A stretch of 44,316 nucleotides of DNA from positions 1 to 44,316 of IMG/VR virus record IMGVR_UViG_3300027908_000011. One strand, 5' to 3'. The position numbers and the translations under genes were made by a program. The stretch comes from a virus. The notes beneath the pieces were generated by a model that did no database searches, was not told the origin of the DNA, and saw only the letters and a list, made by a program, of their open reading frames with translations. The number at the start of each line of letters is the position of its first letter. Positions within the stretch are counted from its first letter, which is position 1. Below, piece after piece: positions 813 through 28,051 of this stretch.

Positions 813-887
813 TGGTTGCAGCGGTGGGAGTCGCACCCACTTTCTCCTGGTTATGAGCCAGGCGTCTTACTGGTTGACTTCGCTGCG
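813..887 (-). tRNA. tRNA-Met(CAU), initiator-like (C1xA72 mismatch), 75 nt
   Basis: Reverse complement is CGCAGCG AA GTC AACCAGTAA GAC G CCTGG CTCATAA CCAGG AGAAA GTGGG TGCGACT CCCAC CGCTGCA ACCA. The 3' end ...GCAACCA and the unpaired 1:72 position resemble bacterial tRNA-fMet. Only 2 of the 3 hallmark G:C pairs are present in the anticodon stem, and the T-loop TGCGACT is atypical. Confidence 0.7.
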
Positions 888-2221: not shown

Positions 2222-2273
2222 GCGGACCAAGCCTAACCCATTGCCCCCAGCGCGTCAACGCATGCCAGCACAT

Positions 2274-2292
2274 GGTGACAATTTTTGTCACC
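2274..2292. promoter_or_regulatory. Perfect 19-bp palindrome GGTGACAA-TTT-TTGTCACC (operator-like)
   Basis: Read directly. It lies about 45-60 bp upstream of the terS start candidates. Confidence 0.6.
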
Positions 2293-2322
2293 GATCACAC
2301 AGCGCTCCGTAAGTATAGTCTA

Positions 2323-2337
2323 TGACAATACTTGTCA
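2323..2337. promoter_or_regulatory. Second palindrome TGACAA-TAC-TTGTCA sharing the same half-site
   Basis: Read directly. It overlaps the first 22-bp repeat unit. On the minus strand a TATACT -10-like hexamer lies at 2312-2317, with GTGACA 15 nt upstream. Confidence 0.5.
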
Positions 2338-2374
2338 CTTGAGACTGCGGAACTTGTCACTTGAGACTGCGGAA
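2331..2374. repeat. Two perfect tandem 22-bp repeats CTTGTCACTTGAGACTGCGGAA
   Basis: 2331-2352 equals 2353-2374. Each unit carries the TTGTCAC half-site and a GAGACTG motif. GAGACTG recurs as an inverted pair in the hairpin at 2507-2528. Confidence 0.85.
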
Positions 2375-2613
2375 TATCGCGATAGCATCAGCGACGACAG
2401 TGCGCGCGAGGTTGGGGATCAATAAGTGTACTCGCACGTACTTATTTACTATACACCGTCATACTTCCACTGTGCGCGCTGCCTGCGCAGCTTGCTTGCG
2501 GCTGTCCAGTCTCGCGGGGCCGAGACTGACCAGCTCGCTGTATTGGACAGTCAACGTTGAACAACGATAATCACTGTTTTTACCGTGGTTTCTACTGATT
2601 TGACTGATTGTGT

Positions 2614-2642
2614 TTGACAGACACCGCTCTGTGTTGTACTCG
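2614..2642 (+). promoter_or_regulatory. Candidate rightward promoter (consensus -35 TTGACA, weak -10)
   Basis: TTGACA is at 2614-2619. After a 17-nt spacer comes TACTCG, and TGTACT is an alternative with a 15-nt spacer. A related TTGACT lies at 2600-2605. All of this is about 50-90 nt upstream of the ATG at 2692. Confidence 0.3.
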
Positions 2643-2691
2643 TGCCGCAGGCATTCGTCATTCACCCACACCGATCCCGAAAGGATCTACC

Positions 2692-2931
2692 ATGATTCAC
2701 CTCTCCCCCCTCGGCGCCAACCTGACTCAAGTATAGCTCAACGGCGCCAACCTGATATTCAGCTACAAGACTCTGGTTGCGCTGGAGACTCGCAACGGTG
2801 ACCGCTTTCAGACGTCGCAGAAGTACAGCAACACGACGACTAAGCATATCACTGTCGCTGGCTACAAGAGCGCGCAGAAGGTCGACCAGAGCACCCTGGA
2901 AGCCATGGCGGCCGGCATCACGGAGAGCGCA
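2692..2931 (+). pseudogene. Small conserved-looking ORF interrupted by one in-frame TAG (codon 15)
   Basis: AAGGA lies 6 nt before the ATG at 2692. The reading is MIHLSPLGANLTQV-TAG(2734)-LNGANLIFSYKTLVALETRNGDRFQTSQKYSNTTTKHITVAGYKSAQKVDQSTLEAMAAGITESA-TGA(2929). There is no ATG/GTG/TTG between the TAG and the conserved part. GGCGCCAACCTGA occurs on both sides of the TAG, 30 nt apart. Confidence 0.5.
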
Positions 2932-3026
2932 TGACCCTCCGCGCCACCCTCCTGCTGATCGAAGTGATCAGCGCTAACGGTTTCGAGATAGCCCCTCCCC
3001 CCTCTCTCTCCCTGGAAGGATAGACC

Positions 3027-4319
3027 GTGAACCTCCCCGTCACACTCCCCGAACCTGAGACAGCGCCGGCCGCGCCGGTTGTCTCTGAGCGCAAGCTTGC
3101 TGGACTGGCCAAGGCGCGCGCCGCGCTGGAAGCCCGTAGAGCGGCCGACAAGGCCGCCGGCATCGTCAGACCCCGCGCAGTGTCAAAGCCCGTCAGCGAG
3201 GCTCCTGCGGCCCCTGCTGTCGTCCCTGATGCTGCGCCTGTCGTCGCGGCTCCCGCCCTCGCTGTGCTGGACCCTCAGCTTGCGACGTTCGCTGGCCAGC
3301 TTCAAGCCATGCTCGGCCTGGCCGCCCGTCAGACGCGCGTGGACGACGTCAAGAGCATCCTCGCCGAACTGTGCCCCGCCCTAATTAATACCGTACACGC
3401 TGCTGTCTGCGCCAAGCCCGAACTGGTGAACGTGCGCAACGTCGCTGAGACTGCCGCGCGCCGTGCCACCGCTGACGAAGTCTCCAAGCACGTCCAGCCC
3501 CGCACCCTGGACGTCCGCATCCACGACAAGGTCCGGTCAGTGGACAGTCCGCATCCCAGTCTGCCCGAACTGTTGAAGCTGTCCCAGGCGATCCCCAACG
3601 TCTGGCTGTGCGGCCCCGCCGGCTCGGGCAAAACCACGCTCGCCCACCAGCTCGCCACTGCGCTCGGCCGTGACTTCGGTTTCCTGTCCTGCACTGCCGG
3701 CATGTCTGAATCTAAGCTACTCGGCCGTATGTCCGTCCACGGTGACTACCTCCGGTCAGACTTTGTCCGCATCTATGAGGAGGGCGGAGTGTTCCTGCTG
3801 GACGAGTTTGACGCTGCCGACGGCAACGTTGTGCTCGCCATCAATAGCGCACTCGCCAACGGCACCATGTCAGTCCCTGACAGAGTCTCGAATCAGAAAG
3901 CCAAGCGCCACGCGGATACGCTGATCATCGTCGCCACGAACACCTGGGGTCGCGGCTCAGACTCACAGTACACCGGCCGCGAAACGATCGACGCCGCCAC
4001 GCGCGACCGCTTCACCCTGTCCAAGCTCTGGATCGACTACGCACACGGCATCGAAGCGCAGTGCCTGGGACACTTCGTCAAGCCGGAATCCGCCGTGAAA
4101 CCGTTCAATGCGCCGTCAGTCTCGAACCTCGGCGCCGCGTTCGCTGTCATCCGCTCCAACATCTCCAAGCACAACTTGCGGCGCATCCTGTCCACGCGCG
4201 CCTACGCGCAGGCTGCTGCACTGCGCGCCATCGGACTGTCGGACCGTGACATCCTGTCGCGCTACTTCATCGATTGGTCAGAGACTGAGCGCACGAAAGC
4301 CTTGGAAGGGGTTGCGTGA
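3027..4319 (+). CDS. AAA_5-type (MoxR/CobS/dynein-related) ATPase with an Ala/Pro-rich N-terminal extension of about 190 aa
   Basis: Walker A is GPAGSGKT (codons from 3612). Walker B is VFLLDEFD. Sensor-1-like IIVATNT and R-finger-like ATRDRF are also present. The core is monomeric in size, about 240 aa. Confidence 0.8.
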   Translation: MNLPVTLPEPETAPAAPVVSERKLAGLAKARAALEARRAADKAAGIVRPRAVSKPVSEAPAAPAVVPDAAPVVAAPALAVLDPQLATFAGQLQAMLGLAARQTRVDDVKSILAELCPALINTVHAAVCAKPELVNVRNVAETAARRATADEVSKHVQPRTLDVRIHDKVRSVDSPHPSLPELLKLSQAIPNVWLCGPAGSGKTTLAHQLATALGRDFGFLSCTAGMSESKLLGRMSVHGDYLRSDFVRIYEEGGVFLLDEFDAADGNVVLAINSALANGTMSVPDRVSNQKAKRHADTLIIVATNTWGRGSDSQYTGRETIDAATRDRFTLSKLWIDYAHGIEAQCLGHFVKPESAVKPFNAPSVSNLGAAFAVIRSNISKHNLRRILSTRAYAQAAALRAIGLSDRDILSRYFIDWSETERTKALEGVA

Positions 4320-4323
4320 CGCC

Positions 4324-5268
4324 ATGGCAAAGACTCACACCCCCGGCCCTATCGACGCTGACGTCCACGAGTCAGTCCGCGGACTGCGCGACCTGTCCGA
4401 ACGTCACGAAATCCGCAAGCCGGACGGCAGCCTGGACAAACTCCTGTACACCGTGAGCCGCGACAATTTCCTGTCGCTGTCTCCCGCGTGCGAGGGGCGC
4501 GGTTCCGCGCGCTCAAACAAAGCCTGGGTCTTCGGCTCACCGGGCAGCGCGTCCGCTCTGATCCAATCACTGACCGGCGGACAGCCAACCGCGTCAGTGT
4601 GGGCAGCGTACCAGCGCATCAAAGCGTCCGCGCGGTTTGACGAGGTAGCGGACGCGACCATCCAGCGGCGCCGCCGCCGTGTCTTCTCTGACAACGGTTG
4701 CGAAGCGGATGGCGCACGCTGGCTCGCTGGCGATCCTGAGCACTGGGCATCCATGCGGCGCGTCGGCCGCGTCCAGTCTATCACCCTTGGCATGCAACTC
4801 GGCCTGTCGTGCGGCAATGGCGAGGATGACTTCGCCGAAAACACTGCAACGTGCGTCGTCCTGGCGGAATCTCTGATCAGTGCTGGATACGCTGTCAGAC
4901 TGGTAGTCATGAACACGTCGTACAACCTGATCAGCGGCGCGTCTGAGACAGGCTGGATCGTCAACGCTGTAGACTTTGGCCAGCCCATCGACGAGGCGGC
5001 CATCCTGTCATGGGGAACCCCGGGCGTGTGCCGCTGGCACGCTTTCGAATACGCACACGCCTTGTTTAGCGGGGACGGTCGTGTGTCGTCCACGTACGGA
5101 TACTGCTACGAAACGTCCGCCGCCATGCTCAAGCTTGCCGGCATCGACCTACTGGTTGCCAAGCAATGGGACAAAGAGAAGGGCGAGCAGAAAGACTACC
5201 TCTCCCGCCTGCGCGACAAAGCTGCCGCCATCATCGCCAGCGGGGAGAGCAACGGGGGTGCGCCATGA
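4324..5268 (+). CDS. hypothetical protein, 314 aa; possible MIDAS-less vWA/Rossmann-like partner of the ATPase
   Basis: The ATG is 4 nt after the ATPase stop. The segment VQSITLGMQLGLSCGNGEDDF...TATCVVLAESLISAGYAVRLVVMN resembles the beta1-loop-alpha1-beta2 of vWA domains, but the DxSxS motif is replaced. This is a weak assignment made by eye. Confidence 0.7.
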   Translation: MAKTHTPGPIDADVHESVRGLRDLSERHEIRKPDGSLDKLLYTVSRDNFLSLSPACEGRGSARSNKAWVFGSPGSASALIQSLTGGQPTASVWAAYQRIKASARFDEVADATIQRRRRRVFSDNGCEADGARWLAGDPEHWASMRRVGRVQSITLGMQLGLSCGNGEDDFAENTATCVVLAESLISAGYAVRLVVMNTSYNLISGASETGWIVNAVDFGQPIDEAAILSWGTPGVCRWHAFEYAHALFSGDGRVSSTYGYCYETSAAMLKLAGIDLLVAKQWDKEKGEQKDYLSRLRDKAAAIIASGESNGGAP

Positions 5269-6197
5269 CGGGCACCCCCCTGCGCGTCGGCGCCTATTAC
5301 CTGCCGCGCGGGGGGCAAGAGACCCTGCGCGAATACGCCAGCGGCAGCGCTGTGGGTCCGATCAGAAAAATGGAGTGCCCATCGGCCGGCTATGAGTACA
5401 GCGATGGACTAACGACGCGGCTGCCGTCCGGCGCATACATCTCCGGCGAGACCTCGGCGCGCGACCTTGTACTGGAATGCACGGCCGATGGCGTCCCTCT
5501 GATCGGCACTGAGACCCCCGCCGCGTACGAGGGCGGATGCTCATGGCTCCGCGGCCTGGCCAAGCCTGCGCCTTTCGCTTTCGTCGCTGGCCAGTTCTAC
5601 AGACTGCGCAACGGCGGCTGTACCGGCCCCATGATGCGCTCCCCTGACGACACCTACTGGTGTGACCCTGAGCACAAAAACGCGCACGGTGCGCCATGGG
5701 AATACCGGGACGATGGCACGACAGAGCCTGCGGAGTTCAACGTCGTCGGCCTGGCCGATGCTGACCAGAAATCGGCAAACCCCGCCCTAAAAGCGGAAAT
5801 GATTCCGGAAATCCGTGGCGCCTGGATCCCCAAAGGGGAGGCGCTCACAGTCGCGTCAGTCACCAGCGCGTTCCAGTCTATGCTCCTGCGCCGCCAGCGG
5901 CTGTCTGATTCTGGCGAGCTGCGGTACTCTGATCAGTCCGCGCCTGCCGCTGTCGCGGTACTCGATCCGCCCATCGGTGATCCATTCACCTGTGAATTGC
6001 GCGTCGGGGACATTGTCGAACACAAGTGGAACGGAGCGCCATCGGGCTATCCGGGCCAGTATCCGATCACCGAGATATCATCAAATCCGTTCGTCGTCTG
6101 GTTCGATACGTCGTCTGACAGACGCGGGCGCGGCATCATGTGCAATACCAAACGGGCATTTTTCAAGTACATCCGTCGTCCAAACCCTGCCGGCTGA
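5265..6197 (+). CDS. hypothetical protein, 310 aa (third gene of the plus-strand cassette)
   Basis: Its start shows an ATGA overlap with the upstream stop. The sequence is Cys/Gly/Trp-containing and non-repetitive, and I recognise no motif in it. Confidence 0.65.
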   Translation: MTGTPLRVGAYYLPRGGQETLREYASGSAVGPIRKMECPSAGYEYSDGLTTRLPSGAYISGETSARDLVLECTADGVPLIGTETPAAYEGGCSWLRGLAKPAPFAFVAGQFYRLRNGGCTGPMMRSPDDTYWCDPEHKNAHGAPWEYRDDGTTEPAEFNVVGLADADQKSANPALKAEMIPEIRGAWIPKGEALTVASVTSAFQSMLLRRQRLSDSGELRYSDQSAPAAVAVLDPPIGDPFTCELRVGDIVEHKWNGAPSGYPGQYPITEISSNPFVVWFDTSSDRRGRGIMCNTKRAFFKYIRRPNPAG

Positions 6198-6320: not shown

Positions 6321-6342
6321 ACCCCCGACGCAAGCCGGGGGT
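6321..6342. terminator. Hairpin in the convergent intergenic region (possible bidirectional terminator)
   Basis: a-cccccg-acgcaagc-cggggg-t is flanked by gattcgttt on plus and by tcttcg on minus. The T-tracts are weak. Confidence 0.3.
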
Positions 6343-6451: not shown

Positions 6452-6793
6452 TCAGTCCGGCACCCATATCAGTCTGCTGATGACTTTGACGGACGGCGCA
6501 CCGTTCTCCAGCCAGCGCACCTGGATCGTCGCGTCGCGCTTGGTCCGGTCGACCTGCTGACAGATATTGTGCAGAGTGATCCAGAGTTCCTGACCGAATC
6601 TGTTCATCGCGTCGGGGTCCGCGAACTTGCGCCGTTCCTTTTGTCCTGCGCCGGCACCGAACCGGGCCGGGTAACCGCGCATGATGATGCCGACAGTCCA
6701 ATGGGCTGCCATCTTCTCGGGCCGGTCGCCCTTTCTGATCACCATCTGGAACGGCTGATCTTTCTTCAGCGGAACGAATGCAGTCAGCGACAT
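6452..6793 (-). CDS. hypothetical protein, 113 aa (last gene of the leftward arm)
   Basis: ORF-track entry with protein-like composition. Confidence 0.55.
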   Translation of the reverse strand: MSLTAFVPLKKDQPFQMVIRKGDRPEKMAAHWTVGIIMRGYPARFGAGAGQKERRKFADPDAMNRFGQELWITLHNICQQVDRTKRDATIQVRWLENGAPSVKVISRLIWVPD

Positions 6794-15322: not shown

Positions 15323-15565
15323 CTACGGGACGAACCCGGACTGTGGGGTGAGTGGCGTCGGGATCTTGCCGTTACGGCCATTGTCCCGCCGCTGCGACTT
15401 CTGCCAGACCTGGTTCAGCAAGGCAATGAAATCGTCGTGCGACATGCCGGGGATCTCATGGGCGCCCAGCAGCGGCTCCTCTGCTTCTAGGATGGTGGCG
15501 CCGCGGGCTTCCTCCTGGCACGAATAACAACAGAGCAGCGCACAGATGAGGATGATCCAGCGCAT
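15323..15565 (-). CDS. small exported protein, 80 aa, Cys-rich signal region
   Basis: N-terminus MRWIILICALLCCYSCQEE. The ATG overlaps the stop of the fibre gene (ATGA). The lipobox is not canonical. Confidence 0.5.
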   Translation of the reverse strand: MRWIILICALLCCYSCQEEARGATILEAEEPLLGAHEIPGMSHDDFIALLNQVWQKSQRRDNGRNGKIPTPLTPQSGFVP

Positions 15566-17667
15566 CAGGGCAGTCGTACGGCGGTAATCGACCCGTCGAT
15601 GGTCGGCGAGCCACCAGCATAGGTCAGGTTACAGGTCAGGAACTCGCTGGTCGTGGCGCTGATGTTGACCACCTGGGCGTCTATGCTGAGCGAGAACAGA
15701 CCGTTGGCGATGATGGACACAGCCGGCGCGCTCTGCTGGGCCATGGTCGTCCCGCTGGTTCCGGTCGCTGCGGTGCCGACCGGGCACGACGCCTGGTAGG
15801 TGGTGCCGACCGTCAGCCCGGTTGCGCCGGCGTGGATGACCACCTTGCCGCTGACGAGCCACTTGCCGGCGGTGAGCGACACGGAGCCCACGTTGCCGGT
15901 GACGGTGGTTGCGGCGGCGGCGACACCGGAGAAAGCGCCGGAGATGGTTTCACCGACAGCGCCGGCAGTGTCAGCCGCAGCCGTATTGCGGCCCCAAATT
16001 ATATTTCCCGTGAAGGTGTTGGCGGAGGGGACGGTGGGGGCGCCGAGGGTCCAGACGCCGGTCGATGCAATTCCGCCAGAACTGGTTGCATTGCCATTGA
16101 CAAAGAAATTGATGGTGCCGCCCGTACCAGCGGCGTCGATATTGAGCCCGGCTCCATTGCTATAAAGAACGCCGGTGTTTTGCGCCAAAGCCCCGGCGGT
16201 GGTGAATGCCGTCCCGAGCATGAAGAGGTTGCACTTGGCGGTCCCGTTGTTGAGCACGAGATTCGTGAAGGCACCGGTCCCACCGTTGCTATTGGTATTC
16301 TGCCAGGTCTGTCCGCCGTTAGCCGACAGGGAAGTGTTGATATAGGTCCCGGAGCTGGGAGCGACGCCGACGCCGATGCCGGTGCCGGCAATGACGATCC
16401 CCCCGCCAGTCGCCACACTCGTCACCGCCGTCCCATTGCCGATGACGACGGCACCGAGGAGGGAGGTGGTGGCGCTGGTCGTGTTCGACACATTCGTCAC
16501 CGCGCTGAAGGTCTTCGCACCGCTAATCGTCTGTGCGAGCCCCAGGGTGTCGACGGTGTCAGTGGCGGTGATATTCGGGATGTTGAGCGTCTGGGTTGTA
16601 CTCTGGTTGTCAGCGATCGTGAGATTGGTCGCCGTGGTCGCCGGACTGATGGACCACAGGATCTGCTTGGTTGGATCGGTGACATCTTCAAGGGATATGG
16701 GGGTCTTGGCCGTCAGGCCAGCGCCGAAGACTGGAGTCCCGGTCCAGGTCTGCGACAGTCCTATGGTCGCCAGGGTATCGGCACCGCTGAGCACCGGCAC
16801 GCTCAGCGTGCGGCTGACCGTCTGCGCGCCGCTGTTCAGCGTGAGGATGGTGCCGGTCGTCTGGTTGGCCGGGTTGAACCTGATCTGCTTGGTCGGATCG
16901 GTGACATCGTTCACGCTCACGCCGTTGGCGTAGTCCACATTGAGCACGGCGGTCGGCGTGGCACCCACGTCGATGTTGACCGTGCCGGTCGCCCCCACCG
17001 CGCCGAGATCCAGCAGGTTGTCGATGGAATAGACATAGGCGCCGTGGGCCGCAGTGAATGGTGCCGCTCCACCAGTCGAACCATTGATCCCAAGATCCAC
17101 ATAGTGGGTGGTCGCCGTCCCATCGTTCGCGGTCGCCACGAAATCAGAGCTGGCCGAGCTACCTGCGTTCTTGTTCTGGACCTGCAATTCGAGGTAGTTG
17201 TTGACGTTTCCCTGGTAGAAGGCCGCCTCTTGGTTGCCAGCGGGAACGATTTGCGGACTGGCTCCCACAACGGTCGTTCCACTATCGTCCACCTGGAAGA
17301 CCGTCGCGCCCTGGTTATTCGTGATCTGCGCATAGATGAAGTACGGCGTGGTCACTGCAGCGGTCACAGTGCCGCTGGTGTAGACCGTGCAGTTCCAGCG
17401 GTAGAATCCGGGGTTGGCGAACACGACCGGGCCGATGTTCCCGGTGTAGGTCGCCAGGGTGTTCCAGTTCCCGCTGCCGCTGGTGCTGTACTGCCACACC
17501 ATGGTTCCGGCCCAGGTACCGGACAGCGTGTAGCTGGAGCTGGTGCTGTACTGGTTCGCCGGCAGACTGATGGGCGTGAGAGCCCCTGTGCCGGTGACAG
17601 ACGAGGTGACGGTCGCGCCCCACAGCGGAGCGGTCAGGCACAGGATCAGCAGTAGCAGGTGGCGCAT
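15565..17667 (-). CDS. tail-fibre-like protein, 700 aa, with a Sec-signal-like N-terminus and two ~65-aa DVTDPTKQI... repeat modules
   Basis: MRHLLLLILCLTAPLWGATV at the N-terminus. The body is S/T/G/A/N-rich and beta-type. The repeats are VTDPTKQIRFNPANQTTGTILTL... and VTDPTKQILWSISPATTATNLTI... . Confidence 0.65.
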   Translation of the reverse strand: MRHLLLLILCLTAPLWGATVTSSVTGTGALTPISLPANQYSTSSSYTLSGTWAGTMVWQYSTSGSGNWNTLATYTGNIGPVVFANPGFYRWNCTVYTSGTVTAAVTTPYFIYAQITNNQGATVFQVDDSGTTVVGASPQIVPAGNQEAAFYQGNVNNYLELQVQNKNAGSSASSDFVATANDGTATTHYVDLGINGSTGGAAPFTAAHGAYVYSIDNLLDLGAVGATGTVNIDVGATPTAVLNVDYANGVSVNDVTDPTKQIRFNPANQTTGTILTLNSGAQTVSRTLSVPVLSGADTLATIGLSQTWTGTPVFGAGLTAKTPISLEDVTDPTKQILWSISPATTATNLTIADNQSTTQTLNIPNITATDTVDTLGLAQTISGAKTFSAVTNVSNTTSATTSLLGAVVIGNGTAVTSVATGGGIVIAGTGIGVGVAPSSGTYINTSLSANGGQTWQNTNSNGGTGAFTNLVLNNGTAKCNLFMLGTAFTTAGALAQNTGVLYSNGAGLNIDAAGTGGTINFFVNGNATSSGGIASTGVWTLGAPTVPSANTFTGNIIWGRNTAAADTAGAVGETISGAFSGVAAAATTVTGNVGSVSLTAGKWLVSGKVVIHAGATGLTVGTTYQASCPVGTAATGTSGTTMAQQSAPAVSIIANGLFSLSIDAQVVNISATTSEFLTCNLTYAGGSPTIDGSITAVRLP

Positions 17668-21220: not shown

Positions 21221-24200
21221 TCACTTCTTGGCCGGCGGCCCCATCGAGTCGAACCAGAGCTGATGCAGCAGGTCGGCGCGGTGACGGGCGCTGTACTCGA
21301 TGCCATCCCACGTCCTGAACACTTGGCTGGTCGGGGTCGGGAAGATGTCGCCGGCGGCCTTGCCGTACGCCTTCAGCGATCCCTTGGCGGTCTTGTGCTC
21401 CGGCTTCTCGTTGGCGTACTCGATCGCCTTCTGCAGGTTGGTCACCCAGGCAGCACCTGCGAAGCCCTCGACGTGGCCGCCTGTGACTGCCGGCGCCAGG
21501 TCGCGCGCGATCGGGATGCCGCGCATCATGGTCTCTGCGGCTGAGACCGGCACCTTCTTGGCCAGTGACATGCCCTTCCACTCGGCCATGTCCTTGCCTT
21601 CCAGAGTGTCGTAGATGTAGTCCCAGCCCATGGTGCTGAGCGCGGCGAGCACGAACGCACCGGCGGCGCCCGACAGGATGTGGCCGATGTCGCCACGCTG
21701 GGCGCCGTAGCGCACGCGGTTGACGTTGCCGACCACGCCGTTCAGCACCGCTATGTCGTAGGACATGCTGCTGGTCAGCATCTTGCCCCAGACGCCGCCC
21801 ATGCGCTCGATCTCGGTCATGTCCTTCTGCTTGCGGCTGCCGAACAGTGATTCAACGATCTGATCAGCGACGCGGACTGACGTGGCGTGATCGTTGCCCG
21901 ACTCGCTCATATGCTGGTCGTAGGCGCCGCTCCAGGCGACGTTGTCCAGGTGTTCCCAGATTTTGGTGACAGCCCACATGCCGATCTTGTCCATGAACGT
22001 ACGGACTGCACCGGACAGCGGACTGTGGTTGATCAGTCCATTGCGCGTCTGATTGCGGAAGCGCATCGTCGCCGACTGTTCGTGGATCCACGCGGCTTTC
22101 GAGCTCCACGGACCGCGCAGGCTCATCTGGGCCTGGGCGGCGCCAATGCGCAGCGCTGGCACCCGGGCGAAGATGTTGGCGAAGCCCGACAGGTGCGCGA
22201 CAGCGAACATCGGATTCAGTCCGCGATGACTGTAGTTGACCATGATGCGCATGGCTTCCATGCCGCGCTCGAAGCCGGTCACCGCGACCTTGTCGCCGCC
22301 GGCGAGACCCCGCGCCTGGTTGATCATCTGCTGGTAGACGCCCGCCCCCCAGTGCTGGATGATAGACGCCTTCAAGTCCTTGTTGGTCAACGTCTTGAGC
22401 TGATTCAGCACGGCGTCACGGTGCGTCAGGTCGTGGGTCATCTCGTTGATGTGACGGTTCCAGTTCCCGGATCCCAGGTCCAGCACCTTGCCGGTCACCG
22501 CCTGCGCGCGCTCCTTGGTGTAGCCCGGGATGTGGACGTTCTGGCGGTAGCCCTCGCCGTCGATCGTCTGCTGCGCCAGGTGTTCCAACGTGGTGGCGGT
22601 GTCGCCGACGTAGTAGATCCGCTGGTAGCCGCCCTTGTAGGTGCCGTTGGGCAGTTCGACCGGGATCGACTCGACCTTCCGCGGCGCGATGCCGTTGTAC
22701 TTCTCCTCCATCGCCTTGATGTCGGACCAGTGCGAGCCCAGGATGTCGACCATGTCGTTGGCGAGCTTGATGTCCTTCGCCGACAGTCCGTCGACGATCT
22801 TGTGGACAACGCCGTCGTCCCAGCGATTCAGGTCCAGCAGGCGCTGGCGGCCTTCCGGGTTGCCGTAGTGCATCAGCGTCACGATGCGGTCGCGCATGCT
22901 CATCGCGCGGTCGACGCCGGGGATCTCGCGCTTGACGACGTAGCCGATCGAATTGAACGACCCGTGCTCGTCCAGCGCGGTCTTCATGCGCGTCTCAAGA
23001 TCATTGCGCATGATCATCATCTTGTCGCTGGCCTCGGCGAACGGGAACAGCATGTGCTCCTGGACGGGGCCGGCGTTCTTGAAACCGTCCATCTCCCACA
23101 GGATGCGCGGGATCTGGATCAGGATGTCCCTGGTGCTGCCCAGCGCGTTGCGCGTGTCGGTCGTCAGTCCGTGCGTGCCGTCAGGATTCCTCGGCCGCTT
23201 GAAGGCGTTGGCGGTGATCGTGCCGACCAGCTCCTTGACCTTCTCCAGCAGGTCAGTCGCGCCGGTGCTGGTCATCAGCTTGTACTTCAGGTTGGCCTTC
23301 TCGGCGACCGCGTCGACCGCGGCACGCAGGTCGTGCAGCTTGGCGATCGACATGTCGCGCCAGTTCTGGCGACTGACGTCGTTCAGGATCGACTCCGGGA
23401 TGTGCGCGACAGACCCGTTGCTGATGAAGTCGCCGTTCTCATCGCGCACCGTCGAGCTCGACTGCAGCCAGTCGGCGAACGACTGACGCTTGCGCACGTC
23501 GCCGGGCGCCCGCTGCTTCAGGTCGTAGCGCTCCAGGAGCTGGTCGATCTGGTCGATGTAGGCGCTGAAACGCTCGTAGGTGCCGCGGGAATTGGTCGCG
23601 GCTTCCTGCGCGCGCTGCTGGCTGGACTTGCCGCCGACCGTCCCGGAGAAATCTTCCTGCCGGCCATCGGGGTGTGTGACACTCCAGCCGTAGCCTCCGG
23701 CCTTGCCGATCTTGGCCCGCAGGTCGGGATTGCGCACGAACTCGTACAGCCGCTTGCGGTCGCGCGCCGCGACGTCTTGGGCCTTCTGCGCAGAGCGCAT
23801 CAGTTCGGCGTTCATCATCTGTCGGCGCTTGGCGTCCAGGGCGGTGACGTAATCCTTCTTGGCCATCGCCTCGGCGTACTTGATCGCCCAGTGGCGCTCG
23901 CCGGCCTGGAAGCGATCGGGCTGGTAGTCCGCCAGGCTGAGCTTGGTGCGCGCCACCACATCGTTCGCCGCGACGCGAATCGCCTTGCGCTCTGGCCGTC
24001 CGGTGCGCGGATCGTTCAGTCGCTGGATGTCGGCGAGCTCGGCGTTGGCTTTGACCTTGGCCGCCAGGTCCGGCAGCCGCTGAATCTTCTCCAGCCGGGC
24101 CAGTCTGGACTGTTCGCTGTCAGCGCCGGCGCCGCGCTTCTCCATCAGCTTCTGTTCAGCTTCAGCGGCCTTGGCCTCGGCGAAGTCAGCTTCGTCGGCC

Positions 24201-27200
24201 GCCAGCTTCTGCTTCAGCAGCTTGTAGGTGTGCTCGCGCTCGATGTCCATGCGCTTGGTGCGCACGTCGTGATCGTGCAGCGCGCGCTGGCCTTCCTGCT
24301 TCATCAGCTCGGGATCCTTCATCGGATCCTGCAGCTTGTCCGCCATGATCGCGTCGGTCTTGCGATCGATGCGCGCCTCGCGGTCTTCCGCGTCGATCAT
24401 GTCGCGCAGCATCTCCTCGCCGTGCGCGTAGCCCAGTTCGGGGGCTACGTTGTCCGGCAGGCGCGCGCCGTTGTCGGCGTTGCTGGTGAAGATCGATCGG
24501 CCGCGGTTCTTCTTGTCCTTGCCGGGACCGGGCAGCTTCTCGGTGTCCTCCTTGCCCAGGATCTTCTCGACCTCGGCACGATCGATCTTCATCGACTGCG
24601 GGATCTCGCGCCCGTCCCAGGTGCGCCCGTCCTGCAGGGCGGTGATCGCCTGATAGACCTTCTCCTGGCCGACCTGTTCCTCGACGATCGCGCGCTGCTT
24701 GGCCCGCTCGTCCTTGAACTGCTGGGACGCCGCGCGCCGGCGAATGTCCATCAGATTGCGCCGCAGGGCTTCCGCCTCCTGCTCGCGCTCGTCGGACAGC
24801 AGCGCCTGATACGACGCCCATTCGGCATCAGTTGCGCCCATCTCGTCCTTGGTCTTGAAGGCCGCTTCGTCAGCGACGCTATGGCGCGCATTGGCCAGCT
24901 CGCGCTCGCTGGCCAGCAGGCGGTCGAACACGTCGCGCATCGCCGGGCTGATCTCGACGCCCAGAGCGCGCACATCCTTGTAGACGCCCTTCGACCACTG
25001 CATGAACTGACCGAAGACGCGGCGCAGGCCGATGCTCGGTGCGACGCCTTCCATGACGTAGCGCTCCCAGCCCTTGGCGAACGTCTCGTCCGGCTTCGAC
25101 AGTTCCTTCATGCGCTCGGACTGTTCGGCGGTCGGCTCTTTGTCGCCGATCGTCCGCTGCAGGTCCGCCAGCTCACGGTTCATCGCCAGCATGTTCTCAT
25201 GGGTGCCGTATCCCGACCACTCCAGCATGGTCTGGTACATGTCCTTGAGCTTCTGCGGCGCGTCCGGGCGCGTGGCGATCGTCGACAGGACGCCGCGGAA
25301 GAAATGCCCCAGCTCATGCAGCGCCGTGCTCTCGTTCGATCCCTGCATCAGTTCGATGACTGACGACAGGTCGTGTCCCATGCTGAAAGCACCGCGCTCC
25401 CCCTGGCGCATGACTGCCGGCGTGCCTTCGCCCAGCGGCTTGCCCTCGGTGGCCTCCATGCTCTTGCCGGCGGCTTCCACGTTCTTGGGTACACCGCGCT
25501 CGATCAGCTGCTCGGGCCGCACGCTGTGGCTGAACTCCGGCGACTTGTAGATTTCCTTCAGCGCGTTGTCGATCAGCCCTTCGACGTGTCCCGGGTCAAG
25601 TCCCTGTCGGCGGGATTCTTCGTGCTGAGCTTCGACGCCAGCTTTGTGGGCTTCAGCGTAGGGAACACCAGCGCGCAGCTGCTCCGCTTCCCGGTGCTCC
25701 AGTGCGACCAGGGAGAGACGCGCTTCTGCTGGGATGCGAGAATCGATGATTGCAGCATGGTCGGTCTCGCTGTAGTGGCTGCCCAGGCCGGACTTGCCGA
25801 TGATGTAGCGCTGGCCGGTGGGCGACACCTGCGCCTCGTCCTTGGGCTTGACGCCCTGGCCCATGATGTCCTTGTGCGCAGCCGTCACGCGCTCCTTGAT
25901 CCCACGCAGGATCTCGACGTTCGGCTGGGCAACCGGGTCCAGGCCCATCGACGTCAGTGCGCTGCGCACGGCGTGGTGCATCGGATCGTCGCCAGGACCG
26001 GCGGTGCGCAGGGTGTCCAGGATCTTGGGCAGACCGCCGCTCTCGATCGACTGACGCAGGATGTCCGGCAGCGCCTTCACGATGCGCAGGCGGAACTGAT
26101 CGTACAGGTCAGTGGGACTGATGGCGTTCTGCTGGGTCTTCGCGCGCTCGTCGTTGACCATGTCCGCCAGCCGGCCGAAGAACTTGCGCGTCAGGTCGCC
26201 CAGGTTGGTGGCGCGCTCCTCGGACTCGCCGGCCGCCAGGAACTGCCGGCGCACCTCGTCGTGGATCATCTGCCCGCGCGGATCATCAGCGCCTCGGCCG
26301 GGCTGAATCTCCATCGCAGCGAGCACCTTCGCGCGCTCCAGCATGCGCTGATCGTTGGTCTCGCGGTCCTGGAAGAACCGTGCGGCTTCAGCGGCGTTCG
26401 GCGCGTCAGCGCTCGGCCTGAACTGGGTCGCCAGGCGATTCGGATCCTTGGACTCAGCGATCAGCGACAGCGTCTGACGCAGCGTCAGTGCCATGCGGGC
26501 GTTCAGGTCAGTCGCTTCCCGGTAGGCGTCGCCCAGTCCGGCGCGCTCAGCCTCGATCAGCGGATCCTTGCCCTGGTCGCGCATGTGGTTGTCGAACTCC
26601 TCGGCCTGCAGGAACCGCGGCGACTGATTGCCGAACCGGCCGGCGATCTGGTCGATCAGCAGGGCAACCTCCTGGGGACTGCGCTCGGCGGACTTCGCGG
26701 AATTGATGGCGGCGGCCGCCTGGGCCAGCTTGGAGGCGTCCTGCAGCACCGCGGCGTTCGATAGCACCTCCATGTGGCGGGCGGTCACGAACGCTTCGTG
26801 CGCGCCGGTGAACGAGAACGCTGCGCCGCCCAGGCCGCCGGCGACCCCCGATTCCAGGGCCTCGCTGGCGGTCGGCGTGCGGCCTTGGGTCAGGATGTCC
26901 TGGGCCCCCGTCGACAGGACGTTCTGGGTCGCGCCCAGTGTGGTCTGCTTGGAGAAGTCCGTCAGCCAGTCCCGGATCGGGTCGGCTGACCAGGGTTCCG
27001 CCTCGAACTGACGCAGCGGCCCGACGTGCTGGAACGCCCGGCCGAACAGGTAGCCCAGCGCCCCCTGGACGGCGGCGTTGGCGGTATTGGCCAGGGCGCC
27101 GGCGCGCTCGCTGGCCGGGGTGTTCTGGATGTCCTGCAACGTCTGCAACGATGCTTGCTCGCCCATGACCAGGGCGGCACCCTTCGCCGCGGCCGCGCCT

Positions 27201-28051
27201 GATCCGGCTTGCTCCAGGATGCCCGTTGCGCCGTAGGAAAGGCCCTTCCCAGCCACGATCGCCGCGTCGAGGGCCTTGGTGGACTGAACGGCGAGCTGTG
27301 CCCCCTTGAGGGGCGGCAGGAGCATTGCCGGCAGGTCGCCGACCATCCCGGCCAGGTTGCCGACCGTCCGGCGCATGGCATCGGGGGGTGCGTAGGTCGC
27401 TTCCGCCCGCGCCTGGTCGGTCATCCGGTCGACGTTGTGGTAGAACATCCCCAGCGGGGTGTACAGCCAGGGTTCGCCGGTGATGCCGAAGATGTCACGG
27501 CCGACGACCTGCGCTGAGGCGATGCCAGTGCCGGCGGTCAGCATGTTGATCAGCGACAGTGCCTTGTTGCGCATCGCCGGCGCGATCACGCCCTTGAGCC
27601 ACGGCAGGGCCTCGCTGGGCTCCTCGGGCTGCGGCATCGGCTGGATGGCCTGGACTGACGTCGACAGCGCACGCAGGTTCGGCACGTCGTCCTTGCCGAT
27701 GGCAGCGTGCGTCGGATCAGACAGCCAGTCGGCCAGTTGCTTGTGGTACTCCTGGATCGCCGGCAGGTCGGCGGACTGCTGGTCGAACCGCGCCTGGACC
27801 TCGGCGAAGTCCTTGGTGGAGAACGCCGCCGGGTTGATCCCGGCGCGGCGGGCGACGGCGGCGGCCTTGGCGGCCATATCGGGAGAGACACCGGCGGCGG
27901 ACTGCTGCGCGGCGGCCATCGACGGAACCGCGTTCGGCGTCCCGTCCAGCTCGCGCAGCGTGTCATTCACGCCAGCCTGATCGGCCTGCGGTTTGGGCTG
28001 CGGATCAGTCGGCTTGTCGAGCTCGCTCAGGGTGTCGTCGAGACCGGCCAT
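21221..28051 (-). CDS. giant internal/ejected virion protein, 2276 aa, with an HExxH zincin-like motif
   Basis: Its position is gp16-like, after two smaller internal proteins. The motif ALHELGHFF lies at residues about 910-918 (nt 25304-25318). There are long helical charged regions and a hydrophobic C-terminal part. Confidence 0.75.
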   Translation of the reverse strand: MAGLDDTLSELDKPTDPQPKPQADQAGVNDTLRELDGTPNAVPSMAAAQQSAAGVSPDMAAKAAAVARRAGINPAAFSTKDFAEVQARFDQQSADLPAIQEYHKQLADWLSDPTHAAIGKDDVPNLRALSTSVQAIQPMPQPEEPSEALPWLKGVIAPAMRNKALSLINMLTAGTGIASAQVVGRDIFGITGEPWLYTPLGMFYHNVDRMTDQARAEATYAPPDAMRRTVGNLAGMVGDLPAMLLPPLKGAQLAVQSTKALDAAIVAGKGLSYGATGILEQAGSGAAAAKGAALVMGEQASLQTLQDIQNTPASERAGALANTANAAVQGALGYLFGRAFQHVGPLRQFEAEPWSADPIRDWLTDFSKQTTLGATQNVLSTGAQDILTQGRTPTASEALESGVAGGLGGAAFSFTGAHEAFVTARHMEVLSNAAVLQDASKLAQAAAAINSAKSAERSPQEVALLIDQIAGRFGNQSPRFLQAEEFDNHMRDQGKDPLIEAERAGLGDAYREATDLNARMALTLRQTLSLIAESKDPNRLATQFRPSADAPNAAEAARFFQDRETNDQRMLERAKVLAAMEIQPGRGADDPRGQMIHDEVRRQFLAAGESEERATNLGDLTRKFFGRLADMVNDERAKTQQNAISPTDLYDQFRLRIVKALPDILRQSIESGGLPKILDTLRTAGPGDDPMHHAVRSALTSMGLDPVAQPNVEILRGIKERVTAAHKDIMGQGVKPKDEAQVSPTGQRYIIGKSGLGSHYSETDHAAIIDSRIPAEARLSLVALEHREAEQLRAGVPYAEAHKAGVEAQHEESRRQGLDPGHVEGLIDNALKEIYKSPEFSHSVRPEQLIERGVPKNVEAAGKSMEATEGKPLGEGTPAVMRQGERGAFSMGHDLSSVIELMQGSNESTALHELGHFFRGVLSTIATRPDAPQKLKDMYQTMLEWSGYGTHENMLAMNRELADLQRTIGDKEPTAEQSERMKELSKPDETFAKGWERYVMEGVAPSIGLRRVFGQFMQWSKGVYKDVRALGVEISPAMRDVFDRLLASERELANARHSVADEAAFKTKDEMGATDAEWASYQALLSDEREQEAEALRRNLMDIRRRAASQQFKDERAKQRAIVEEQVGQEKVYQAITALQDGRTWDGREIPQSMKIDRAEVEKILGKEDTEKLPGPGKDKKNRGRSIFTSNADNGARLPDNVAPELGYAHGEEMLRDMIDAEDREARIDRKTDAIMADKLQDPMKDPELMKQEGQRALHDHDVRTKRMDIEREHTYKLLKQKLAADEADFAEAKAAEAEQKLMEKRGAGADSEQSRLARLEKIQRLPDLAAKVKANAELADIQRLNDPRTGRPERKAIRVAANDVVARTKLSLADYQPDRFQAGERHWAIKYAEAMAKKDYVTALDAKRRQMMNAELMRSAQKAQDVAARDRKRLYEFVRNPDLRAKIGKAGGYGWSVTHPDGRQEDFSGTVGGKSSQQRAQEAATNSRGTYERFSAYIDQIDQLLERYDLKQRAPGDVRKRQSFADWLQSSSTVRDENGDFISNGSVAHIPESILNDVSRQNWRDMSIAKLHDLRAAVDAVAEKANLKYKLMTSTGATDLLEKVKELVGTITANAFKRPRNPDGTHGLTTDTRNALGSTRDILIQIPRILWEMDGFKNAGPVQEHMLFPFAEASDKMMIMRNDLETRMKTALDEHGSFNSIGYVVKREIPGVDRAMSMRDRIVTLMHYGNPEGRQRLLDLNRWDDGVVHKIVDGLSAKDIKLANDMVDILGSHWSDIKAMEEKYNGIAPRKVESIPVELPNGTYKGGYQRIYYVGDTATTLEHLAQQTIDGEGYRQNVHIPGYTKERAQAVTGKVLDLGSGNWNRHINEMTHDLTHRDAVLNQLKTLTNKDLKASIIQHWGAGVYQQMINQARGLAGGDKVAVTGFERGMEAMRIMVNYSHRGLNPMFAVAHLSGFANIFARVPALRIGAAQAQMSLRGPWSSKAAWIHEQSATMRFRNQTRNGLINHSPLSGAVRTFMDKIGMWAVTKIWEHLDNVAWSGAYDQHMSESGNDHATSVRVADQIVESLFGSRKQKDMTEIERMGGVWGKMLTSSMSYDIAVLNGVVGNVNRVRYGAQRGDIGHILSGAAGAFVLAALSTMGWDYIYDTLEGKDMAEWKGMSLAKKVPVSAAETMMRGIPIARDLAPAVTGGHVEGFAGAAWVTNLQKAIEYANEKPEHKTAKGSLKAYGKAAGDIFPTPTSQVFRTWDGIEYSARHRADLLHQLWFDSMGPPAKK

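Follow-up and report, generated by a model that had tools for sequence, protein, structure and literature searches.

The plus-strand cassette of a soil-metagenome podovirus is, judged by sequence, a diverged version of a gene pair whose members are neighbors in hundreds of unrelated phages, and to which a third, lineage-specific gene has been added. The pair would combine an ATPase motor of the MoxR/CobS class with a dedicated adaptor, a DUF7192 protein lacking the MIDAS metal site, and would act before virion assembly, likely in phage DNA replication or host takeover. We incline toward this reading, if only slightly.

Organization of the Cassette

The window, the whole stretch of 44,316 nucleotides that was analyzed, is a phage genome with genes otherwise on the minus strand, and a search of 185,579 species genomes turned up no close relative. 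The plus strand carries three tightly coupled genes: g1 (3027-4319), which has a GTG start preceded by a GGAAGGA ribosome-binding site and encodes 430 residues; g2 (4324-5268), encoding the DUF7192 protein of 314 residues; and g3 (5265-6197), encoding 310 residues with no assigned function. The spacing between g1 and g2 is 4 nt, and the start of g3 overlaps the stop of g2 through ATGA. This coupling had been proposed in the original prediction, made from the sequence before any database search, and public gene callers give identical calls for the three ORFs on near-identical contigs. The claim that the cassette is the sole multi-gene plus-strand unit is likewise borne out, both by ORF selection based on GC3 and by the public gene calls.

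An operator-like control region and a convergent hairpin had been described on the two sides of the cassette, and both are present. The divergent control region (2231-3026) is lower in G+C and separates the minus-strand small terminase gene from the plus-strand cassette. It holds the palindromes GTGACAAnnnTTGTCAC (2275-2291 and 2322-2338), an exact 22-nt tandem duplication (2330-2373), and a sigma-70-like promoter on the plus strand (2544-2571). A 30-aa ORF called by public pipelines lies at about 2931-3023 (converted from L005 7667-7759). At the other end, a G+C-rich hairpin (6321-6342; 7 pairs, 6 of them G-C) occupies the gap between g3 and the convergent last minus-strand gene (6452-6793, minus strand). 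As its T tail is weak, the hairpin is regarded only as a candidate bidirectional terminator. The GC3 of the cassette is below that of the core genes, and the unit stands alone beside the control region, a combination that looks like a moron; within the window it is distant from the structural genes and on the opposite strand to them. In keeping with the earlier remark that the phage has no visible replication enzymes, no polymerase, primase, or helicase was detectable in the genome; RecT and an exonuclease are present.

The First Gene Encodes a Putative MoxR/CobS-Class ATPase

The match of g1 to Pfam AAA_5 covers the full length of the profile (1-139 of 139, E 5e-19). All of the motifs previously quoted for g1 are present, with GPAGSGKT at residue 196, VFLLDEFD at 255, IIVATNT at 300, and ATRDRF at 324, and the catalytic set is intact: Walker A (G196-T203), Walker B (D259/E260), sensor 1 (N305), the arginine finger (R328), and sensor 2 (R391). 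Across 13 phage homologues, g1 included, G196, G199, G201, K202, D259, E260, N305, R328, and R391 are invariant. The match to phrog_249 (E 2e-43) spans g1 residues 145-410 and starts at profile position 81. The N-terminal extension of about 190 residues that had been described as Ala/Pro-rich is therefore in part a region belonging to the family, which varies in length between about 120 and 250 residues in the relatives; the Ala/Pro-rich, low-complexity first ∼90 residues are peculiar to g1.

A search of solved proteins with the profile of the 13-sequence family found midasin (E 2.5e-79), CobS (2e-27), CbbQ (4e-25), and NorQ (6e-18) as the closest relatives, and helicases all ranked below CobS, CbbQ, and NorQ. 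With CbbQ, NorQ, and midasin in the score range of CobS, the similarity of the ATPase is at the level of the class only. A CobS equivalog was considered for g1 and rejected, as its NCBIfam matches include no CobS model and all fall far under their cut-offs, and the similarity to CobS is in the range of CbbQ and NorQ. These comparisons support assigning g1 to the AAA_5 ATPases, within the MoxR/CobS class.

The Second Gene Encodes a DUF7192 Protein with a Predicted vWA-Like Fold

The g2 protein matches Pfam DUF7192 (PF23822) with 37.0 bits, above the gathering threshold of 27, and phrog_1909 with E 8e-6; a tblastn search of 50,697 phage records gave no match. DUF7192/phrog_1909 is an existing but uncharacterised family, and a full-text literature search for the name DUF7192 found no paper. 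In the AlphaFold2 model (pLDDT 71.5, pTM 0.72), an N-terminal subdomain is followed by a loop (106-149), a vWA-like α/β core (about 152-260), and C-terminal helices. The loop is conserved and poorly modeled. It contains RRRRR at 115-119, a run kept in only part of the family in a 25-sequence alignment, and the family-wide G125/D129/G136 motif.

When the model was compared with the PDB by Foldseek, the VWA domain of NorD was the top match (probability 0.95), and the other best matches were the MIDAS domain of Rea1, the vWA domain of Ku80, and vWF A1. Global similarity to these vWA structures is weak (TM-scores 0.24-0.28, best PDB E 3.5e-3). In BFVD, the first 12 matches are DUF7192 proteins (E 5e-10 to 3e-6, TM 0.35-0.58), followed by phage CobT-like/vWA proteins with probabilities up to 0.99. 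At the sequence level, no link was found to the Pfam VWA family or to any solved vWA protein, and there was no match to the CobT family in Pfam or NCBIfam. The segment after the first core strand reads QLGLSCGNG (LGLSCGNG at residue 159) and has no MIDAS motif. Nor is a conserved DxSxS present in the DUF7192 family, where most sequences of the 25-member alignment start this segment with Asn and vary in the residues that follow. The model and the alignment together support g2 as a DUF7192 member with a predicted vWA-like fold and no MIDAS metal site. The original view of g2 as a degenerate vWA protein holds for the predicted fold and the missing motif; the protein is not an isolated case, since it belongs to a family.

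The Third Gene Is Confined to One Lineage

No match to g3 was found in Pfam, PHROG, NCBIfam, PADLOC, or the PDB, and an exhaustive phmmer search recovered six proteins among 1.84 billion, in agreement with the initial failure to recognize a family. Homologues are encoded on L025 (63% identity) and on L026, a diverged relative in which the order is ATPase, DUF7192, a 97-aa ORF, and g3, and in which the g2 homologue is 57% identical. L026 is the sole case of g3 after the pair; it is absent from this position in L004 and in every other phage examined. The N terminus of g3 carries a conserved motif, GTPLRVGAYYLPRGG. Residues of about 100-165 form a "GxFYxxRxGxxxGPM" domain common to phage proteins of phrog_23578/phrog_4317, a helix spans about 196-215, and the C-terminal segment (about 235-300) is weakly Tudor/SH3-like. 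Phage proteins with such small domains show no linkage to the ATPase-DUF7192 pair. Profile searches and structure prediction, which had been suggested for all of the cassette proteins, placed g2 but not g3, whose predicted structure is unusable (pLDDT 31.6). The gene is a lineage-specific add-on and a near orphan. As neither L004 nor any of the distant phages has it behind the pair, it may be an unrelated passenger.

The ATPase and DUF7192 Genes Form a Conserved Pair

The ATPase and DUF7192 genes were next to each other at every one of the 15 independent loci examined, which include phages of Staphylococcus, Mycobacterium, Gordonia, Acinetobacter, Rhizobium, Alteromonas, and Clostridium and a crAss-like phage. 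Exceptions in the arrangement are two loci with other ORFs between the pair and the reversed order in Clostridium phage CS266P3. Each of the two genes is carried by 236 Staphylococcus phage records. The pair also occurs in Listeria phages and is fixed in strictly lytic phages, among them the Kayvirus group. A survey for the triplet had been proposed; the conserved unit is the pair and not the triplet, as g3 joins it only in L026, and there with the 97-aa ORF inserted.

The neighborhood of the pair differs between phages. In crAss-like phage cr118_1 the genes around it encode DNA polymerase and helicase, in Alteromonas phage PT11-V19 they encode helicase and primase, and genes of replication-initiation or primosomal type are found downstream in L004 and L010. 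Replication genes are near the pair in only these 4 of the 15 loci and are not near it in the window phage. In mycobacteriophages and in Gordonia and Acinetobacter phages, the pair is located amid small early genes of unassigned function.

Published data are available for two homologous pairs. In phage K, gp219/gp220 (ATPase) and gp221 (DUF7192) belong to a common transcription unit, TU21, of the early/middle class (PMC9241854 Table S3). Mycobacteriophage LeBron has one ATPase, gp128, identified here as a homologue with E 8e-24, and two DUF7192 paralogues, gp127 and gp120. Overexpression of gp128 alone lowered the viability of M. smegmatis by >3 log, and neither DUF7192 gene was listed as cytotoxic (PMC13148394). 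Such toxicity is not a specific effect when an AAA+ ATPase is overexpressed. The presence of two adaptor paralogues per motor suggests several targets.

Proposed Mechanism and Alternatives

CobS, CbbQ, NorQ, and midasin all operate with vWA partners (PMC13036017; bioRxiv 10.64898/2026.07.21.739949). NorQD works by an established finger-in-pore mechanism that has been proposed as general (PMC13036017), and in CobS-CobT the shaft of CobT is inserted into the CobS ring (bioRxiv 10.64898/2026.07.21.739949). By analogy with NorQ-NorD, CobS-CobT, CbbQ-CbbO, and Rea1, g1 would form a hexameric ring on which g2 docks, probably with its flexible loop 106-149 in the central pore. ATP hydrolysis would then twist or pull the adaptor, and the target protein bound to it would be remodeled. 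Because the MIDAS is absent across the DUF7192 family, the target may be gripped by a protein-protein surface rather than through a metal-bridged acidic residue. The module would work before virion assembly, most likely in the service of phage DNA replication or host takeover, and tetrapyrrole metalation would not be its role. Most simply, g3, which would be co-translated with g2, may be an accessory subunit or a client that fits the module to its host. Host takeover or replication licensing, both raised in the original prediction, are candidate roles favored by genomic context and by the timing of the homologues.

A more far-reaching version, which we consider unlikely, would make the pair a near-universal phage takeover machine. 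Its adaptor would hold on to a conserved protein of host replication or of the nucleoid, and remodeling of this protein by the motor would pass the host replisome to phage DNA. In the window phage, the cassette would be the replication-licensing module, with g3 as the subunit that recognizes the target in its host. A helicase-loader, a clamp, or a nucleoid-associated complex are examples of targets for such a machine. The early/middle timing would also fit an anti-defense or general host-shut-off effector that dismantles a host immune or housekeeping complex early and has no direct part in replication. The toxicity of gp128, the small early genes around the pair, the two LeBron adaptors, and the moron-like isolation of the low-GC3 cassette near the control region are all in line with such an effector. 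However, anti-defense genes are usually patchy and fast evolving, whereas the pair is stable across phage groups that face very different host defense repertoires. No likeness to known anti-defense proteins was seen in searches made without a dedicated library, and the replication-gene neighbors in four lineages better match a role in replication. We regard an effector of this type as doubtful, though with a real chance of being correct. The suggestion that the cassette is itself a phage-borne defense system was not sustained. The best PADLOC match, IetA, covers about 70 P-loop residues of g1 (E 4e-5), g2 matches only DndH (E 0.0086), and g3 matches nothing; such weak, P-loop-level matches, together with the fixation of the pair in strictly lytic phages, led us to reject a recognized defense system.

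Those replication-gene neighbors could also point to g1 as a replicative or loader-type AAA+ enzyme in its own right, perhaps MCM-like, with g2 as a DNA- or origin-binding partner. The window phage has no identifiable helicase or polymerase, and an HHpred probability of 99.9% was reported for LeBron gp128 against MCM6 (PMC13148394). Yet the best matches are of the AAA_5/MoxR class and not helicases (for g1, Pfam MCM has E 0.034 against 5e-19 for AAA_5), neither g1 nor g2 showed a DNA-binding domain, and the crAss-like and Alteromonas phages with the pair already encode their own helicases. A replicative enzyme is thus improbable, and so, to much the same degree, is a virion-assembly chaperone. 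The precedent for the latter is in the same ATPase class: Acidianus two-tailed virus needs a MoxR-vWA pair to develop its tails, and a MoxR-vWA-peptidase pair has been proposed for jumbo phages (PMC7824862). The position of the window cassette, away from the structural genes and on the other strand, argues against such a function, as do the expression class of the phage K homologues, which is not late, and the neighbors elsewhere, which are replication or early genes and not structural ones. The alternative to which we give the least credence treats the pair as auxiliary metabolic genes, a viral CobS/CobT motor that commandeers host CobN and boosts cobalamin synthesis. Raised cobalamin synthesis has been hypothesized for cobST clusters in tailed viruses (PMC8651126). 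Consistent with this are the porphyrin label of phrog_249, the rank of CobS as the best single-domain solved relative, and the weak likeness of the g2 model to phage CobT-like proteins; against it are the lack of a CobS model among the NCBIfam matches of g1, the comparable scores of CbbQ, NorQ, and midasin, and a g2 protein about half as long as those phage CobT-like proteins, with no CobT family match and with the MIDAS missing family-wide. To our knowledge, Staphylococcus, host of phages in which the pair is fixed, also has no CobN-dependent aerobic B12 pathway.

The motor-adaptor reading has consequences beyond this phage. The pair is currently labeled "porphyrin biosynthesis" (phrog_249), "transcriptional regulator," or "hypothetical," a widespread misannotation that is corrected once it is recognized as a MoxR/CobS-type motor whose vWA-like adaptor lacks the metal site. 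The phages that carry it include the therapeutic Staphylococcus phages of the phage K group, Listeria phages, crAss-like phages of the gut, and mycobacteriophages. The reading also offers a testable model, with a ring and adaptor, a pore loop, and a protein target, for a conserved early/middle phage function. The window copy alone gives no new principle; it is a very divergent member, to which extra subunits such as g3 may have been attached.

Comparison with Known Systems

Midasin (Rea1) provides the strongest sequence matches of g1, and the structure search with g2 ranks its MIDAS domain near the top. Unlike the phage pair, it is a single, giant protein of eukaryotes in which six AAA modules are fused into one chain, and its metal-binding MIDAS domain docks ribosome-assembly factors. 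As for CobS-CobT, no solved single-domain protein comes closer to the ATPase family than CobS, and phage CobT-like proteins are the next structural neighbors of g2 after the DUF7192 proteins. In contrast to CobT, g2 has neither a MIDAS motif nor the N-terminal M48C-like domain, and its 314 residues are about half of the 563-863 found in the phage CobT-like proteins matched in BFVD. [quoted passage not shown] Compared with NorD, g2 is much shorter, lacks the MIDAS motif, and is without the linker and N-terminal domain. The candidate loop of g2 comes before the vWA-like core in the chain, whereas in NorD it is the VWA domain from which the finger projects. The window pair differs from both systems in being viral, and its sequence has no pointer to a metalloenzyme client.

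The pairs of phage K (gp219-220/gp221), LeBron (gp128/gp127), Acinetobacter phage AM24, and cr118_1 have the same families, gene order, and adjacency as g1 and g2. They also share the invariant ATPase residues and the DUF7192 signature of G125, D129, G136, R237, and G259. Peculiar to the window copy are the Ala/Pro-rich N terminus of g1, the coupled third gene, the position as a lone opposite-strand unit, and a low PF23822 score, with 37 bits for g2 against 197-299 in the three isolated-phage homologues scanned (Staphylococcus, Acinetobacter, and Rhizobium).

Organization of the Cassette

The three-gene cassette is located on the plus strand at nucleotides 3027–6197, as the original prediction had placed it. 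Gene 1 (3027–4319, plus strand, 430 aa) has a GTG start preceded by the ribosome-binding site GGAAGGA. Gene 2 (4324–5268, plus strand, 314 aa) follows after a gap of 4 nt, and gene 3 (5265–6197, plus strand, 310 aa) starts inside an ATGA overlap with the stop codon of gene 2. The same three genes were predicted by public gene callers on near-identical contigs. Third-position G+C and the public calls both assign all other coding-like sequence of the window to the minus strand, which agrees with the claim that the cassette is the only multi-gene plus-strand unit. An antisense ORF of 229 aa (4404–5093, minus strand, third-position G+C 0.75), wholly within gene 2, was rejected as a gene; the conservation of gene 2 and the atypical G+C of the ORF at the first two codon positions make a by-product of high G+C the most likely explanation.

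The third-position G+C of the cassette is 0.72–0.77, compared with 0.86–0.91 for the core genes (RecT, exonuclease, portal, large terminase, and the giant protein), which suggests that the cassette was acquired later or is expressed at a different level. Upstream lies a divergent control region of ∼800 bp (2231–3026) with low G+C (0.555) and without a convincing gene. It contains two GTGACAAnnnTTGTCAC palindromes (2275–2291 and 2322–2338), an exact 22-nt tandem duplication (2330–2373), and an inverted repeat (2501–2534) directly upstream of a sigma-70-like promoter (2544–2571). This region could be an operator region or could hold the physical genome end or packaging site. Downstream of the cassette, the anticipated G+C-rich hairpin was found in the convergent gap at 6321–6342.

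The Phage Genome

The window covers nearly all of a phage genome about 44.7 kb long, and near-identical contigs are present in soil metagenomes (e.g., ENA ERZ27255970, 44,765 bp, and ERZ923594, 44,775 bp). Family scans identified the small and large terminase, a protease, the major head protein, and a portal of the T7/epsilon15 type, which shares only about 30% identity with its counterparts in phiSG1 and epsilon15-like podoviruses. They also identified a tail spike, tail tubular proteins, internal virion proteins (one of them of 2276 aa), an esterase, a lysis-type enzyme, an Ead/Ea22-like protein, RecT, and a PD-(D/E)XK exonuclease. Neither these scans nor those of the unassigned early proteins detected a polymerase, primase, helicase, or integrase, in line with the earlier remark that replication enzymes are not visible in this phage.

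The 2276-aa protein (21221–28051, minus strand) matches phrog_9880 (E = 2e-162), a family of unknown function. Flanked on one side by the tail spike and on the other by a 634-aa protein with endolysin-like matches, it presumably belongs to the giant internal or ejection proteins. A 700-aa protein (15565–17667, minus strand) has no Pfam or PHROG match and shows atypical codon-position G+C (0.52/0.57/0.81). ARAGORN and Rfam together define a minus-strand cluster of four or five tRNA genes at 646–1339. Those for Thr(cgt) (646–725), Tyr(gta) (984–1074), Leu(cag) (1078–1154), and Ser(cga) (1251–1339), all on the minus strand, were detected by ARAGORN, and a further one (816–887, minus strand), missed by ARAGORN, was detected by Rfam.

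An AAA_5 ATPase and Its Probable vWA-like Adaptor

The AAA_5 identity of gene 1 is borne out by a Pfam match over the full profile (E = 5e-19), and every motif originally quoted for genes 1 and 2 is present. In an alignment of 13 proteins of the ATPase family, the Walker A residues G196, G199, G201, and K202, the Walker B residues D259 and E260, sensor 1 (N305), the arginine finger (R328), and sensor 2 (R391) are invariant (gene 1 numbering); given these invariant catalytic positions, gene 1 should encode an active ATPase. phrog_249, labeled "porphyrin biosynthesis" in PHROGs, matches residues 145–410 (E = 2e-43). Family members differ from one another in how long their N-terminal regions are and in what they are composed of, and the Ala/Pro-rich extension, put at about 190 aa by the original prediction, is shorter than proposed: phrog_249 aligns from residue 145, and only the first 90 or so residues, rich in Ala and Pro, are peculiar to gene 1.

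When a profile built from the same alignment was searched against solved proteins, the nearest was midasin (E = 2.5e-79, in five stretches, one for each fused AAA module), followed by CobS (E = 2e-27), CbbQ (E = 4e-25), and NorQ (E = 6e-18). These profile matches assign gene 1 to the AAA_5 clade whose members pair with vWA or MIDAS partners. Identification as a CobS orthologue was rejected because gene 1 qualified for no NCBIfam model; the NCBIfam matches of the cassette proteins were to generic P-loops only. A scan of viral contigs found no close relatives of gene 1.

Gene 2 belongs to an existing family, DUF7192 (PF23822; 37 bits, cut-off 27), and also matches phrog_1909, which has no known function. 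A full-text literature search for the name DUF7192 returned no paper. The AlphaFold2 model, built from 13 sequences, has a pLDDT of 71.5 and a pTM of 0.72. Its best match in the PDB is the VWA domain of NorD bound to NorQ (probability 0.95, E = 3.5e-3), with weaker matches to the Rea1 MIDAS domain, the Ku80 vWA domain, and vWF A1. In BFVD, 12 DUF7192 proteins (E = 5e-10 to 3e-6, TM 0.35–0.58) are followed by phage CobT-like or vWA proteins (E = 4e-4 and weaker). No competing fold emerged from these searches. The predicted fold is described here only as vWA-like, and vWA membership is not claimed, because vWA domains are matched with low TM-scores only (about 0.25) and neither single-sequence nor profile searches of the PDB gave a meaningful link to solved vWA proteins.

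A conserved DxSxS motif, the hallmark of the MIDAS, is absent from a 25-sequence DUF7192 alignment. At this position gene 2 has QLGLSCGNG, and most members have an Asn there. The proposal of a vWA-like protein without a MIDAS stands as regards the predicted vWA-like fold and the missing motif, and what had been taken for a degenerate vWA protein is a member of DUF7192. The family signature consists of G125, D129, G136, R237, and G259 (gene 2 numbering). Residues 106–149 are the best-conserved stretch in the family, yet the worst-modeled part of the structure; an RRRR run opens this stretch in the clade of the window and several others.

The Conserved Unit Is a Gene Pair

In every independent locus examined, the ATPase and DUF7192 genes are adjacent. 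Besides the window, these loci comprise the metagenomic relatives L004 and L026, the IMG/VR contigs L009 and L010, an uncultured podovirus, and Acinetobacter, Rhizobium, Staphylococcus, Gordonia, Mycobacterium (Aegeus and LeBron), Alteromonas, Clostridium, and crAss-like phages. A tblastn search with the ATPase returned 430 phage records, of which 236 are from Staphylococcus, 80 from Mycobacterium, and 70 from Listeria phages; the remainder belong to Acinetobacter, Gordonia, Rhizobium, Clostridium, Alteromonas, and crAss-like phages. For Staphylococcus phages, the number of records is exactly 236 for the ATPase and exactly 236 for DUF7192.

The arrangement varies in detail. Two small ORFs lie between the genes in the Rhizobium phage, the order is reversed in the Clostridium phage, and a homing-endonuclease-like gene separates the two in the Acinetobacter phage Mithridates (L001). 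The latter gene (L001, 4800–5675), on the opposite strand and encoding a treble-clef zinc finger (DUF4379) with a weak MUG113 match, looks like a homing-endonuclease insertion. In the Mycobacterium phage LeBron (L024; 1521–2363, 5325–6197, and 6420–7664), a single ATPase, gp128, is accompanied by two paralogues of DUF7192, of which gp127 adjoins it and gp120 is about 4 kb away; this hints at two adaptors for one motor.

Distant blastn of the cassette DNA and tblastn of genes 2 and 3 against 50,697 phage records gave no match, and no close relatives of the gene 2 clade were found in genomes of 185,579 species. A word-indexed search returned three homologues of gene 2, and a profile search at least 13.

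Gene 3 Is a Lineage-Specific Addition

Conservation of all three genes as a triplet was not seen: the pair is adjacent in all loci examined, and linkage of gene 3 to it is confined to close relatives. Gene 3 is therefore a lineage-specific addition to the operon. In L026 (gene 2 57% identical), the order is ATPase C terminus, DUF7192, a 97-aa ORF, and the N terminus of gene 3, with 16/16 residues identical; the ORF (1029–1322) has an N-terminal CxxC motif and no family match. In L025, the gene 3 homologue comes after an unrelated ORF, and downstream of the pair in L004 (gene 2 41% identical) come first an 86-aa ORF and next a gene for a DUF1376 replication-type protein.

As anticipated, gene 3 falls in no recognizable family: Pfam, PHROGs, NCBIfam, PADLOC, and the PDB gave no match, nor did Pfam scans of its separate segments with E values up to 10 or a profile search of the PDB, and its structure model is unusable (pLDDT 31.6). 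Two proteins were returned by a word-indexed search and six, gene 3 itself among them, by exhaustive phmmer against 1.84 billion representatives. The others are P0002 (63% identical), P0016 (375 aa, of like layout), P0019, and two repeat proteins; a scan of viral contigs found no close relatives of P0016. One repeat-inflated match of the C terminus to Tudor repeats (P0018, E = 2e-4) is only a hint that this part may be Tudor-like.

The middle motif of gene 3, AGQFYRLRNGGxTGPMMR, marks a small domain also present, together with SH3/Tudor-like KVGDxV modules, in proteins of phrog_4317 and phrog_23578 that are encoded on IMG/VR contigs and in a Brucella pseudogrignonensis genome, where the locus is most likely a prophage. 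Such modular phage or prophage proteins, combining KVGDxV units with a GKFYRTRDGxxxGPM domain, are encoded at loci L011–L017 and L027; one member (L015, 6445–7422) ends in a ribosomal L7/L12 C-terminal-like domain. Five distinct loci with the gene 3-like domain (L013/L017, L015, L016, and L027) contain no ATPase or DUF7192 gene within flanks of at least ±6 kb, and a general linkage of gene 3-family proteins to the pair was therefore rejected. Gene 3 may be an accessory subunit or a client of the pair.

Timing, Role, and Possible Mechanism

In phage K, the ATPase, annotated as gp219 of the early class and gp220 of the middle class, shares transcription unit TU21 with the DUF7192 gene gp221, which is also middle (PMC9241854, Table S3); therefore, as observed for this homologue, the module acts ahead of late gene expression. 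Temporal class is given only in this supplementary table, and the texts of the Kayvirus and Listeria phage transcriptome papers do not mention the genes. The two CDSs annotated for the phage K ATPase, gp220 and gp219 (NC_005880.2, 20303–21422), are separated by about 270 nt and differ in temporal class; the split could reflect an intron, a frameshift, or an artifact of annotation. In LeBron, gp128 ranks with the most cytotoxic phage genes (viability falls by >3 logs), and gp127 and gp120 are absent from the toxic list (PMC13148394).

In the crAss-like cr118_1 the pair is flanked by genes for DNA polymerase and helicase, and in Alteromonas phage PT11-V19 by genes for helicase and primase; replication-initiation or primosomal-type genes are downstream of it in L004 and L010, and elsewhere it is found amid small early genes. 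The early and middle timing and the recurrent replication-gene neighbors make it most likely that the module contributes to host takeover or to replication of the phage DNA. Tetrapyrrole metalation, the kind of function that the phrog_249 label evokes, is unlikely, as is virion assembly. No PADLOC defense model was matched, only generic P-loops. A licensing role in this phage, which is without its own replisome, is an attractive possibility.

In the structures solved for this class of ATPase, the hexamer carries the vWA partner, whose finger (NorD) or shaft (CobT) enters the pore, and ATP-driven subunit movements twist the client-holding partner (PMC13036017; bioRxiv 10.64898/2026.07.21.739949). 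The design was proposed by the NorQD authors for all AAA+/vWA pairs (PMC13036017). Analogous to NorQ-NorD and CobS-CobT, gene 1 would form a hexamer on which gene 2 docks, with the flexible conserved loop 106–149 as the candidate pore element. Since the MIDAS is absent family-wide, the client would have to be gripped by a protein surface and not by a metal-bridged acidic residue.

Comparison with Known AAA+/vWA Systems

From its sequence, the cassette is a very divergent member of an existing, uncharacterized module (phrog_249 plus PF23822). It points to a widespread phage function that is misannotated and experimentally tractable, and not to a new principle. Compared with systems of the MoxR/vWA kind, the adaptor is compact and has no MIDAS, the setting is viral, and a third gene is coupled here. 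The cassette falls outside CobST, and gene 2 falls outside the MIDAS-bearing vWA partners, yet by analogy the cassette probably works in a similar way to both.
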